Assembly: GCA_944389385.1 (NCBI GenBank)
Contig: CALXMC010000003.1
Location: forward strand, 10,356 to 74,355
DNA length: 64,000 bases
Reading direction: 5' to 3'
DNA from: an uncultured Alphaproteobacteria bacterium
Lineage (GTDB): Bacteria > Pseudomonadota > Alphaproteobacteria > Rs-D84
Positions 57,316-59,817 of the stretch are shown here, piece after piece. Under the pieces are notes generated by a model that was not told where the DNA came from, did no database searches, and saw nothing but the letters and a program-made list of their open reading frames with translations. The translations under genes were made by a program, and so were the position numbers. Positions within the stretch are counted from its first letter, which is position 1, and each line of letters begins with the position of its first letter.

Positions 57316-59817
57316 ATGAACAAGTTGAAAAAGCAATTTTCTGATTTGCGGAAAAGCACACCAAAACATATACAATGGTTGTTGTTGGCGGCGGCCTTTG
57401 TTGTGGTTTTGATTTTGTTAACTTTGTTATTGACCCGCAAAGATACTGAACCCGTTACAACCACAGAAGATGAAGTCGCGCTGGAATTATATGTTACGCC
57501 AGATACCGTTGATTGGGCAAATGTTATGGTTGGCGAAACCGTTACGGAAACTTTGCAATTGTCGGCAAATGCACCCGTGCGCATAACAGATATTCGTTTT
57601 GCGAATGACGTTGACGGATTAAGCCATGTTGAAACATGCACACCAATGACAATAGATGATCAACTTTCGTGCTCGATAAAAATTACGTACAGCCCAACCG
57701 GTGCAATCAGTGCATATCCAGACGCAATGTATATCGATTGGCGTGGTGCAGACGAAAACGATATTATGCAGGAAAGTTACAAGGTTGTTTTAACATTGGG
57801 TGCCGTGGAACCTGAATTACCGGAACCCGAACCAATCCCCGAACCAGAACCGATTCCTGAACCCGATCCTGTCCCAGAACCAGAACCAGTTGCCGAACCG
57901 ACGACCGATTTTGATGACGATTTGGAAATTTTAATCCCAGAAAACGATTTTTCGTTGGATGATAATTTATTGTTTGAACCAGAACCGATATACGAACCAC
58001 TGGATACAGAACCTGAATACGTTCGCCCGCCCGAGGCCTGTGATGATTTCGCAATGCCTGCATATAATTTATCGGGGGTGCAAAGCGGGTGGATTCGTCC
58101 AAGTGGTGGCGCATACTATTATCACCCATTTTCTGATACGACGTGCAGCAACCCAACCGGGGTATATAACCCAGACAACGGAATTATTACAGATATAAAT
58201 AACCCAGGCCAAAAAATCGGAACCGATGCTGAAAACATCGGTATGGTTGCAATTGGTGGGAATGTTATTCCGCAATTGTCAAACCCTGTATCCACGCGCA
58301 GCGTATCTGGGCGCGCCCGCCAGGCAACCAACGAGGAATTGGGAATTGGTGGTGAAATTACAGCATTACCAGAAGATACCAGCAAACCACTTGGTCTGAA
58401 TCTGGCATCGGCGCCAGAGCCCGATGTAATTGTCGGCACCAGTGGAACGGCGGTATTTTCATCCGACCCGTTTGACAGAAAATTTGTATTGCGTCAATAT
58501 AAACCAATTCCGGCAACAATCGTGTCCGAGGTTCGTGCCGACCCATCATTATACAGTTGTGGCTCAGCCGGCGGCAACTGTTCCGGTCAAACATTGCCTG
58601 TACGTGCCACTGTTGACCGCAATGTTTATTCTGATGACGGTCGTACCGTTGTCATACCAACAGGAACGTTGATGTTGGGATATGTAACCGGCGAGTTACC
58701 CGGACCATATAAATCGGTTGGGCGTATGCAGATAAAATGGTACCAATTTATCTTGCCCAGTGGTGTCGAGTTTAATTTTTCCAAAAATGACGCGCCATTT
58801 TCCGGCGATTCCCAGGGACGTGCCGGTGTTCCCGGACATGGCAGCACTGATTATATCGAACAATTGGTTATGCCTATGATTACGGCAATTGTGCCGGCTG
58901 CGGTTAATATGATTGCACCAATCGCCGATACATTTGTAAATCAAATCGATTTGGATAATAATACTGTCGTGCAAAGCGGAACTGTACGTTCGTCTGAATT
59001 GGCAAAACAAGAAATTATTACCGCGTGGAACCAGGTTGCACAAAAATTACTGATGGATGCATTGGATAATACCGTGCCACCGTTCTCGATTGCGGCGGGT
59101 ACCCGTATTACCGTGTATTCACCCCAAGATTTGGTAATTACGTGCGGTAAAGACGACAGCAAAGAATGTTCCATATCAAATGTTCGCTCGAAATCTGGTC
59201 TTCTTGCCGCAGACAAAGAAAAAGATATGGAACGCAACATGCGCAAGGATGACTGGCGGGGAGATGCTCAGGAGGTACGTGTTGACTATGCTGATTCTTC
59301 CTGGATTGGCCAAGCCCGGTCATTCGATTTAAGCAAATTCTGTATCCAAGACGCAGATGGTATATGGGGGGTTGATAATAGCAAGCGCGGCGAAATCCAG
59401 GAATCAGGTTATGATTACAGGACTGTGTTGGGGTATTGTCAATCACTGAATTACCAGGCGATAAATAATGCGCGTCAAGATGCGCTGTATCAGGATCAAC
59501 AAAAACAGTTCCAGGACTCGTACAGTGACGTAACCAGCAACGATTCATTTGTATCGTATGGCAGTCTGTCTGGGATTCAGGGCGATCAAAAGTATAACGA
59601 AGAAGTATTGGGTCTGACATACGATGATGGTGCAATACAAAATCCATTTGCAAGCGTCGAAGAAACGGCACCGGTTGAAACGGTTATTACGTGCGAAGGT
59701 GGTGCATTACCCGATGCAAATGGGTGCTGTCCAGGTGAAACTTACACCGATATGGGCGAACAAGGATTCAATTGTTGCCCCGATGGTGGTGGCGATTGCT
59801 TCCCGCCGATATTGTAG
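57316..59817 (+). CDS. virB10: Type IV secretion system protein VirB10/TrbI, unusually long (833 aa) with Pro-Glu repeat linker and Cys-rich C-terminal extension
   Basis: N-terminal cytoplasmic segment plus TM (WLLLAAAFVVVLILLTLLL). PEPEPIPEPEPIPEPDPVPEPEPVAEP repeat. VirB10 barrel-domain signature ..RATVDRNVYSDDGRTVVIPTGTLMLGYVTGELPGPYKSVGRMQIKWYQFILPSGVEFNF..GRAGVPGHGSTDY. Then about 240 extra residues ending CEGGALPDANGCCPGETYTDMGEQGFNCCPDGGGDCFPPIL. Confidence 0.8.
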   Translation: MNKLKKQFSDLRKSTPKHIQWLLLAAAFVVVLILLTLLLTRKDTEPVTTTEDEVALELYVTPDTVDWANVMVGETVTETLQLSANAPVRITDIRFANDVDGLSHVETCTPMTIDDQLSCSIKITYSPTGAISAYPDAMYIDWRGADENDIMQESYKVVLTLGAVEPELPEPEPIPEPEPIPEPDPVPEPEPVAEPTTDFDDDLEILIPENDFSLDDNLLFEPEPIYEPLDTEPEYVRPPEACDDFAMPAYNLSGVQSGWIRPSGGAYYYHPFSDTTCSNPTGVYNPDNGIITDINNPGQKIGTDAENIGMVAIGGNVIPQLSNPVSTRSVSGRARQATNEELGIGGEITALPEDTSKPLGLNLASAPEPDVIVGTSGTAVFSSDPFDRKFVLRQYKPIPATIVSEVRADPSLYSCGSAGGNCSGQTLPVRATVDRNVYSDDGRTVVIPTGTLMLGYVTGELPGPYKSVGRMQIKWYQFILPSGVEFNFSKNDAPFSGDSQGRAGVPGHGSTDYIEQLVMPMITAIVPAAVNMIAPIADTFVNQIDLDNNTVVQSGTVRSSELAKQEIITAWNQVAQKLLMDALDNTVPPFSIAAGTRITVYSPQDLVITCGKDDSKECSISNVRSKSGLLAADKEKDMERNMRKDDWRGDAQEVRVDYADSSWIGQARSFDLSKFCIQDADGIWGVDNSKRGEIQESGYDYRTVLGYCQSLNYQAINNARQDALYQDQQKQFQDSYSDVTSNDSFVSYGSLSGIQGDQKYNEEVLGLTYDDGAIQNPFASVEETAPVETVITCEGGALPDANGCCPGETYTDMGEQGFNCCPDGGGDCFPPIL

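Follow-up and report, generated by a model that had tools for sequence, protein, structure and literature searches.

The window, by which we mean the whole 64-kb stretch of DNA that was analysed, contains a virB8-virB9-virB10 cluster of type IV secretion system (T4SS) genes, and the present work concerns its virB10 gene (57316..59817, + strand, stop codon included), an uninterrupted open reading frame (ORF) with an ATG start and full-length orthologues that encodes a protein of 833 residues. The window organism is Candidatus Enterousia (Alphaproteobacteria, order Rs-D84), an uncultured gut bacterium with a small genome. Enterousia is placed in the GTDB order Rs-D84 with genomes that are mostly <1 Mb, and it is described as anaerobic, without respiratory chains, strictly fermenting and predicted to depend on other cells (PMC12306168). 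A scan taking one genome per species found 33 loci that encode a relative of this VirB10 at 46-71% identity, some of them from Candidatus Enterousia and the remainder from metagenome-assembled genomes (MAGs) of uncultured gut Alphaproteobacteria. Wherever the contigs reach, the gene order is the same: rpoB-rplL-rplJ-rplA-rplK-nusG-secE-(tRNA-Trp), followed by virB8-virB9-virB10-orf117 and then by yidC-lspA on the opposite strand. Given this conserved order, the virB cluster is fixed in the chromosome and inherited vertically, rather than being a mobile element. Its first gene, virB8 (54952..55704, +; Pfam VirB8, E 2.7e-7, 31.1 bits against a cut-off of 23.2), and virB9 (55729..57264, +; 511 residues, Pfam CagX, E 2.3e-21) lie immediately 5' of virB10, an arrangement kept in all loci. 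On the 3' side, nearly all related loci carry orf117 (61089-61442, +), which encodes 117 residues with no Pfam match. The orf117 product is better conserved than VirB10 (61-92% identity among the related loci) and has neither a signal peptide nor a membrane helix. No virB11 or virD4 gene follows the virB10 cluster or lies within 10 kb of it, and our literature search found no description of a T4SS in Rs-D84 or Enterousia.

The canonical parts of a VirB10 are readily recognised in this protein. The Pfam TrbI/VirB10 family (PF03743) matches residues 396-607 (E 7.5e-16, 59 bits against a gathering score of 35) over model positions 6-187 of 188, and defines the VirB10/TrbI beta-barrel (58501..59136, +). 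The NCBIfam VirB10 and ComB10 models match residues 429-607/614, with scores far below the equivalog cut-offs for both T4SS_VirB10 (NF038091; 56.6 versus 220 bits) and ComB10 (NF038092; 45.6 versus 300 bits). Judged from these profile matches, the protein is a divergent member of the VirB10/TrbI superfamily that fits neither named NCBIfam equivalog. Consistently, a profile of the barrel searched against the PDB matched the C-terminal domain of CagY and ComB10 (E 2.3e-6 to 6e-5), with CagY the best match. A PDB search with the single sequence returned only internalin K, a low-complexity alignment of the Pro-rich linker that was discarded. Ahead of the barrel, hydropathy analysis places a cytoplasmic N-terminus (residues 1-19) and a single inner-membrane helix extending to about residue 40 (57316..57438, +), with one N-terminal transmembrane helix at approximately residues 15-40 and a peak at residues 15-33; column identity over residues 1-30 is 78% in an alignment of 32 orthologues, which is also the source of the conservation values given below. 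Together with the Pro/Glu tracts, this yields the bitopic topology of a short cytoplasmic N-terminus, one transmembrane helix and a Pro-rich periplasmic region. Within the barrel, residues 516-534 form a hydrophobic and highly conserved stretch, the hydropathy peak of a helix region at approximately residues 510-545 (58843-58950, +) that we presume to be the outer-membrane antenna. An earlier note on this DNA, made from the sequence alone, had described an oversized VirB10 whose core is complete by about residue 600, and the end of the TrbI match at residue 607 agrees with that description.

Between the membrane helix and the barrel lie two parts that the earlier account had left out, separated by the Pro/Glu-rich linker that it had described. 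The first is an Ig-like periplasmic domain of the choice-of-anchor D or ASH-like type (approximately residues 57-163; 57484..57804, +) with a conserved cysteine pair, C108/C119. The NCBIfam choice_anch_D model matches it with E 4.9e-7 in this protein and matches 26 of the 32 orthologues (best E 3.4e-8), all under the curated cut-off, and Pfam Cep192_D4 matches the same domain with E 0.0063. The second is a conserved module directly ahead of the barrel (approximately residues 240-330; 58033..58305, +), identified from the alignment, with disulfide-type invariant cysteines C242/C277 and 77% column identity; it has no Pfam match and belongs to no known family. The linker between this module and the barrel is variable. 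The Pro/Glu-rich linker between the two parts (57805..58032, +) consists of a first tract (residues 164-196), an acidic spacer and a second tract (residues 220-239), and has low conservation with gaps in the alignment. The protein sequence of the first tract (residues ~164-196) reads EPELPEPEPIPEPEPIPEPDPVPEPEPVAEP. The repeat had been called near-perfect at the DNA level, a claim that did not hold: over nucleotides 57815-57899 it is degenerate, with 72% matches at a period of 18 and 77% at a period of 36 by Tandem Repeats Finder. The expected copy-number variation was found on a small scale, as indels of 2, 4 and 6 residues in both Pro/Glu tracts among strains that are 93-97% identical, and one strain variant carries the patch ELFHVLD in place of EPIPEPD. 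In other strains, a five-residue patch, LFHVL or LFHEL, replaces PIPEP in a manner that resembles a compensated frameshift. Some near-identical VirB10 gene calls (P0007, P0126 and P0128; 583-590 residues) begin at residue 247 (MPAYNLSG), just past the Pro/Glu tracts. The repeat tracts may be a cause of frameshifts or mis-assemblies.

The most unusual part of the protein follows the barrel. The earlier note had proposed a continuation of about 240 residues with no VirB10 counterpart; the length is 226 residues (608-833), and the absence of a counterpart is borne out in the libraries searched, in which this segment has no Pfam or NCBIfam match even at E<=10 and no PDB match by sequence or fold. 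Its proximal part (residues 608-789; 59137..59682, +), delimited by the alignment, the conservation profile and AlphaFold2, begins with a C610/C618 loop, continues through a variable charged spacer (631-660) into a small alpha/beta subdomain (approximately 661-735) with the pair C676/C708, and then passes through a variable Q/N/S-rich spacer, a conserved YNEEVLGLTY..IQNPF segment and an acidic/Thr spacer to a terminal module with six cysteines, which we term the knob. Column identity is 0.71-0.95 in the barrel and 0.25-0.61 over most of the tail, but climbs to 0.88 across the last 23 residues. In the alignment, 14 cysteines are shared by 30-32 of the 32 orthologues, 12 of them being invariant, and they are laid out as the four pairs C108/C119, C242/C277, C610/C618 and C676/C708 plus six within the last 41 residues. 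An AlphaFold2 model of residues 596-833 has a mean predicted local distance difference test (pLDDT) score of 61.6 and is confident only over approximately residues 666-725 (block pLDDT 82-89), with the knob at a moderate level. The model is poor, and Foldseek returned nothing significant for it (best E 1.6), all matches having E>1 and carrying no meaning. Our literature search found no C-terminal cysteine-rich extension of VirB10 described in the papers retrieved.

An extension of this kind could in principle be an artefact, in which a frameshift or an assembly error fused a downstream ORF to virB10. The orthologues refute this explanation, to which we give practically no probability. The query is covered over 100% of its length by more than 120 protein clusters with 62-94% identity; full-length members have 795-853 residues, and one partial has 585. 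Of the 33 genome loci, 31 yield continuous products of 780-847 residues, while the matches at the other 2 are interrupted by a contig end or by the border of the fetched stretch. All full-length orthologues found (>150, 46-94% identity) share one architecture, and the plan is unchanged in more divergent VirB10s of 765-806 residues. An identical continuous frame and length in >150 independent assemblies or MAGs, with conservation right up to the final residue, exclude a frameshift fusion. In addition, the short database entries of 583-590 residues are truncated at the N-terminus and not at the C-terminus, and the gene that follows, orf117, is a distinct one conserved at every locus. Two entries (P0152 and P0159) that combine part of the tail with unrelated N-termini look chimeric or fragmentary and were not used. 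We are thus virtually certain that the protein is a VirB10 and that its tail is genuine and conserved. The possibility, raised earlier, that the extension is a known domain of VirB10 in this lineage is half right: conservation of the tail does hold across the whole lineage, yet the tail corresponds to no known domain.

The knob comprises the last 44 residues (790-833; 59683..59814, +), is acidic and has the cysteine spacing C-x10-CC-x14-CC-x6-C-FPPIL. The compact terminal cysteine cluster that had been noticed from the sequence is indeed present as CEGGALPDANGCCPGETYTDMGEQGFNCCPDGGGDC (residues 793-828; nucleotides 59692-59799), and all six cysteines are invariant, both among the 32 orthologues and among 89 diverse module copies, which shows that the cluster is no chance feature. 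The consensus of these 89 copies, xxxCxDGxxPDxxGCCxGExYTDMGxxGFxCCPxxGGDCFPPxx, shows that conservation extends beyond cysteine, with G803 invariant, E808 in 88/89, P831 in 86/89, P799 in 83/89 and recognisable YTDMG and FPP motifs. Modelled alone from a 76-sequence alignment, the knob is predicted by AlphaFold2 to be compact with a beta-hairpin core (pLDDT 87). Neither Pfam nor NCBIfam matches it at E<=10, its profile finds nothing at E<=10 among PDB sequences, and Foldseek finds no significant neighbour of the model in the PDB (best E 1.7). The granulin, hevein/ChtBD1, EGF and zinc-finger families gave no significant sequence or fold match; granulin, defensin and EGF-like entries appear only in the Foldseek noise, and we assign the knob to no family. 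A C-terminal sorting signal does not account for the module. The LPXTG, PEP-CTERM, GlyGly-CTERM and MYXO-CTERM signals consist of a short motif, a hydrophobic helix and a basic tail; here the protein ends 5 residues past the last cysteine (C-FPPIL), without a hydrophobic helix.

The knob also occurs on many proteins other than VirB10. We searched 1.84 billion cluster representatives with a profile of the tail (E<=0.001) and obtained 233 protein clusters at the 50% identity level. The whole-tail profile is matched completely only by VirB10-sized proteins or their fragments, and outside VirB10 just the last ~45 residues match. Among the 150 best of the 233 representatives, 138 contain the C-CC-CC-C module, and its last copy ends 4-10 residues from the C-terminus in 137 of these. 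A rough automatic sort divides the 138 carriers into VirB10 (17), long proteins that combine a cytoplasmic coiled-coil region with a single membrane helix and a Pro-rich spacer ahead of the knob (27), mini-proteins of <=105 residues with one membrane helix and the knob (17), exported proteins with two or three tandem knobs (13), further single-knob proteins that bear a signal or an anchor, a trypsin-like protease among them (36), and other proteins or fragments (28). The mini carriers of 75-83 residues reduce this plan to one membrane helix, a linker of ~10-20 residues and the knob. The carriers are annotated as hypothetical and come from Alphaproteobacteria MAGs. The knob is thus a promiscuous module placed strictly at the C-terminus and carried by exported or membrane-anchored envelope proteins of the lineage, and we are highly confident that it is a shared domain undescribed in the libraries searched.

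The genomic surroundings of the other carriers are those of envelope genes. A carrier of 79-81 residues directly follows an LppC/LpoA-like gene at a distance of 3-20 nucleotides, and does so in two divergent forms of the locus (L034-L041; for example L034 6001-6246). A carrier of ~200 residues closes an operon of a MacB_PCD/FtsX permease and an ABC ATPase in four genomes (L044 8001-8645; L047 8001-8796; L049 4001-4882; L050 4001-4846), is followed in 3 of the 4 by a mini carrier of 76-80 residues, and in 3 of the 4 this MacB/FtsX-type operon is near ftsQ-ftsA. No T4SS genes stand beside the non-VirB10 carriers at the LpoA-linked and MacB-type loci examined. We therefore rejected the idea that the knob is a T4SS-specific part, since the neighbourhoods of the other carriers are without T4SS genes. 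The LpoA-linked carrier locus and the virB10 loci share the order pyruvate kinase-GapR-CTP synthase, with 65-75% identity for pyruvate kinase and 88-94% for GapR, and this common gene order indicates that the LpoA-linked carriers belong to the same lineage as virB10. Matching of assembly accessions did not place module carriers and this VirB10 in one genome, so that the linkage is one at the level of the lineage.

The distribution of the module bears on what it might do. One explanation is that the knob is a passive stabiliser that shields C-termini from tail-specific proteases, or a homotypic connector that binds itself, in which case the small carriers would decorate a ring of VirB10. Its strictly C-terminal position with a fixed end, exactly 5 residues in 87 of the 138 carriers, its presence on unrelated proteins, and the occurrence of tandem copies and of adjacent carrier genes (~200 residues, then 80) are in keeping with such a role. 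The conservation of non-cysteine surface residues (E808, P799, P831, YTDMG and FPP) goes beyond what a simple cap needs, and we regard this explanation as unlikely. We consider it plausible, if short of an even chance, that the knob is instead an envelope-docking domain, which would fix its carriers to one common, conserved ligand in the envelope; this could be the cell wall or else a component of the outer membrane or periplasm. In its broadest form, this proposal makes the knob a new family and a common envelope address or docking tag in Rs-D84 (Enterousia) that links unrelated machines to one scaffold or glycan, a generalisation that we advance only tentatively. The machines it would connect, namely the T4SS through VirB10, the LpoA-associated mini-protein, the MacB-type operon, the TonB-like spanners and the protease, are named with the same reserve.

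The carriers also argue about the side of the outer membrane on which the knob acts. The earlier note had suggested contact with host or outer-surface partners, and in its full form this proposal would have the tail thread to the cell surface with the knob as an adhesin or contact sensor, as proposed for parts of CagY. The predicted dependence of Enterousia on other cells (PMC12306168) would suit such a role, as would the long flexible spacers in the tail, the exported carriers with two or three tandem knobs, which would fit a multivalent lectin-like adhesin, and the fact that small disulfide-rich acidic domains are common in extracellular proteins. Against this, the tail begins past the last barrel strand, whereas it is the antenna loop that traverses the outer membrane in solved VirB10 structures (PMC6536674), and the mini carriers of 75-83 residues cannot reach past the periplasm unless they are cleaved and exported. 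The neighbours of the other carriers are envelope housekeeping genes (LpoA-like, MacB-type ABC transporter and FtsQ/FtsA), and few parts of the protein are as well conserved as the knob (88% column identity), whereas host-exposed parts are usually the most variable. Because of the mini carriers and the LpoA-like and MacB-type gene links, the target would more probably lie inside the cell envelope, and surface contact is in our view quite improbable.

A further question is the state of the cysteines. The paired cysteines of VirB10 would form disulfides in the periplasm, which is plausible because the window encodes both a CPHC-containing protein of thioredoxin fold and further exported proteins in which 12-29 cysteines occur. 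The former is a candidate periplasmic thiol oxidase (13555..14151, -; Pfam Glutaredoxin, E 2.8e-4) with a signal peptide, a thioredoxin-type fold, a C-terminal membrane anchor and the CPHC sequence, the active-site motif of DsbA; its gene adjoins a CvpA-like gene. The latter are three exported cysteine-rich proteins with no Pfam match, containing 12 (28061-28864, -), 29 (28849-31245, -) and 22 cysteines (32378-34696, -), and they suggest a cysteine-rich exported proteome. Each has an N-terminal signal peptide or hydrophobic segment (approximately residues 94-112 in the 798-residue ORF) and long Ser/Thr- or Gln/Ala-rich regions. Alternatively, the six knob cysteines could be reduced and coordinate zinc or an iron-sulfur cluster, forming a structural or redox-sensing cap. 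Six invariant cysteines within 36 residues would suit a metal site, a strict fermenter without respiratory chains makes re-oxidation of a Dsb system uncertain, and one source names a fragment 'uncharacterized Zn-finger protein' by automatic annotation. Yet all examined carriers are exported or hold the knob on the periplasmic side, the other eight conserved VirB10 cysteines form close, disulfide-like pairs, and the window supplies the signal-peptide CPHC protein as well as the exported 12-, 22- and 29-cysteine proteins. The CC doublets, with no CxxC or His ligands, are typical of disulfide knots rather than of zinc fingers. Metal binding is accordingly a highly unlikely account of the module.

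The neighbouring VirB9 appears to be modified as well. Its C-terminus (approximately residues 403-511; 56935-57261, +) matches the SPOR domain (Pfam PF05036) with 20.3 bits, just under the cut-off of 21 (E 7.2e-4), and SPOR is matched in 24 of 24 VirB9 orthologues at E<=0.1 with a best E of 6.7e-8, so that by profile comparison it is likely a true SPOR domain. It is preceded by a low-complexity linker rich in Met, Gly and Tyr. No VirB9-SPOR fusion was described in the literature that we searched. In addition, no VirB7-like ORF precedes virB8, and the cluster encodes no VirB7 lipoprotein. The earlier proposal of a structurally modified core complex is a fair reading of these data, given the SPOR match in every VirB9 orthologue scanned.

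On balance, we lean towards an overall reading in which this is a VirB10 with parts added in the lineage, whose knob docks the channel in the envelope. The lineage has added three parts to VirB10 that are conserved across it, namely the Ig-like domain, the cysteine-stapled module ahead of the barrel and the 226-residue tail, and the tail resembles beads on a string, with a Cys-Cys loop, a charged spacer, a small helical subdomain with a cysteine pair, a Q/N-rich spacer and the knob. Solved T4SS core complexes contain 14 copies with 14-fold symmetry (PMC6536674). If the ring here matches them, the VirB10 knobs would form a ring of ~14 tethered modules beneath the outer membrane. These knobs and the peptidoglycan-binding SPOR domain of VirB9 may together fasten the channel in the envelope and could stand in for the VirB7 lipoprotein. 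In Xanthomonas citri, functional machines are formed by a VirB10-msfGFP chimera (PMC7286519), and by analogy with this precedent a domain appended to VirB10 would be compatible with function, the C-terminal position of the GFP being read from the name of the construct.

Several observations weigh against the docking of a secretion channel as we propose it. A Pfam scan of ~45 ORFs from the window and its flanks found none of the other T4SS genes virB4, virB6, virB11 and virD4, and the 7 kb downstream of lspA in one related locus (L002) contain no further T4SS gene among the ORFs scanned. The large window ORFs without a Pfam match have at most one predicted membrane helix each and are not VirB6-like. 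The window contains a single copy of the knob, the one on VirB10. Re-oxidation of a periplasmic oxidase would be uncertain in an anaerobe that does not respire. A single fixed location of the ligand is also not obvious, because the knob sits close to the inner membrane in the mini carriers but would sit far from it in VirB10 and the TonB-like carriers. Finally, the function of the knob as a domain with a docking ligand or partner is put forward by inference only.

T4SS channels are gated by VirB10, a subunit that reaches across both membranes, and the enlarged forms known so far all carry their additions on the N-terminal side. A structured C-terminal tail on VirB10, together with a VirB9 that likely ends in a SPOR domain and the lack of virB7 in the cluster, suggests another design for anchoring the core complex, and, if true, this would be the first T4SS in which VirB10 anchors itself by its own C-terminal domain in place of the VirB7 lipoprotein. 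Uncultured gut bacteria such as Enterousia and its relatives are common and are thought to live at the expense of other cells; their conserved T4SS is an obvious candidate for this interaction. Of most general interest is the undescribed six-cysteine domain shared across envelope proteins of the lineage, its function being put forward from its context; definition of its ligand would annotate many 'hypothetical' envelope proteins, in at least 138 protein clusters. The VirB10 itself is a variant of a well-known protein and bears on no long-standing open question.

Other features of the window lie at the borders of the cluster and further away. The spacer between virB10 and orf117 (59818-61088) is 1.27 kb long versus ~300 bp in most related loci and is packed with repeats. 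It contains a duplicated 71-nucleotide unit (59940-60010 and 60650-60720, 93% identical), further direct repeats ~660-710 nucleotides apart and 29-nucleotide inverted repeats (60178-60206 and 60295-60323). Rfam identifies no RNA family in this spacer, and the repeats look like inserted miniature repeat elements. The palindrome GTTACTCGTAACTC (GTTAC-N2-GTAAC) is present in 10 copies with <=1 mismatch versus 0.03 expected, at 26138, 54928, 57265-57285, 59824-59858, 60514 and 61899, all at gene boundaries. Copies lie immediately 5' of virB8 and of virB10, only the closest relatives (L001 and L014) have exact copies, and the motif may be an operator or boundary element. Elsewhere, the window encodes an 894-residue protein with Chlam_PMP repeats (38921-41605, -), a porin of the Pom (Protochlamydia outer membrane protein) family (21485-22960, -) and a weak autotransporter beta-domain (3099-4100, +), which are surface proteins of a chlamydia-like flavour. 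An 812-residue ORF (8539-10977, -) has no Pfam match and no predicted membrane helix, its GC content is 37% versus ~45% elsewhere, and it may be acquired or fast-evolving.

Comparison with known systems places the individual parts of this protein in context. The knob resembles granulin and hevein-type lectin domains in its ~40 residues, CC doublets and hairpin core, but this is resemblance only, as the Foldseek matches to granulin A and C have E>1 and a probability of <=0.28 and the cysteine spacing differs. In architecture alone, the protein and the long coiled-coil carriers recall TonB, with an inner-membrane helix, a Pro/Glu-rich spacer and a small C-terminal domain that meets a distant partner; there is no sequence or fold relation to TonB, and the terminal domain here is the six-cysteine module. 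The rvh T4SS of the Rickettsiales is similar in belonging to alphaproteobacteria with reduced genomes and in having chromosomal, vertically inherited genes placed among housekeeping genes. In Rickettsiales, virB11 and virD4 follow virB10, while here orf117 and yidC do, and no Cys-rich VirB10 tail is known in that order. Lineage-specific C-terminal additions to T4SS subunits have a precedent in the Xanthomonas-type bactericidal T4SS, in which VirB7 (N0 domain) and VirB8 (AQGP-rich tail) carry C-terminal extensions that make the complex larger (PMC6536674). Those additions differ from the one described here in that they lie on other subunits and have other sequences; a C-terminal extension of VirB10 is described neither there nor in the other papers retrieved.

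The closest likeness is to VirB10 proteins themselves. Canonical VirB10, TraF(pKM101) and TrbI, core-complex subunits of type IVA secretion systems, share with this protein the barrel, the N-terminal helix, the Pro-rich spacer, the hydrophobic helix within the barrel and the position of the gene after virB8-virB9. Classical VirB10 proteins have ~380-390 residues in comparison with the 833 here, where an Ig-like domain stands between the helix and the Pro-rich spacer, an extra module precedes the barrel and 226 residues follow it. CagY of Helicobacter pylori (1927 residues) and DotG of Legionella resemble it in having a VirB10-type barrel within a much larger protein and a non-minimal core complex, and the comparison with CagY that had been drawn earlier stands as far as an enlarged VirB10 is concerned but is otherwise imperfect. 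CagY and DotG are enlarged on the N-terminal side, with the barrel as the C-terminus, and the region of CagY matched by our barrel profile is residues 1687-1811 of 1927, near its C-terminal end. In the Enterousia protein the barrel is not at the C-terminal end, as 226 residues follow it. The mass added to CagY is N-terminal and repetitive, whereas the largest single addition to this VirB10 lies past the barrel and consists of unique, conserved domains.

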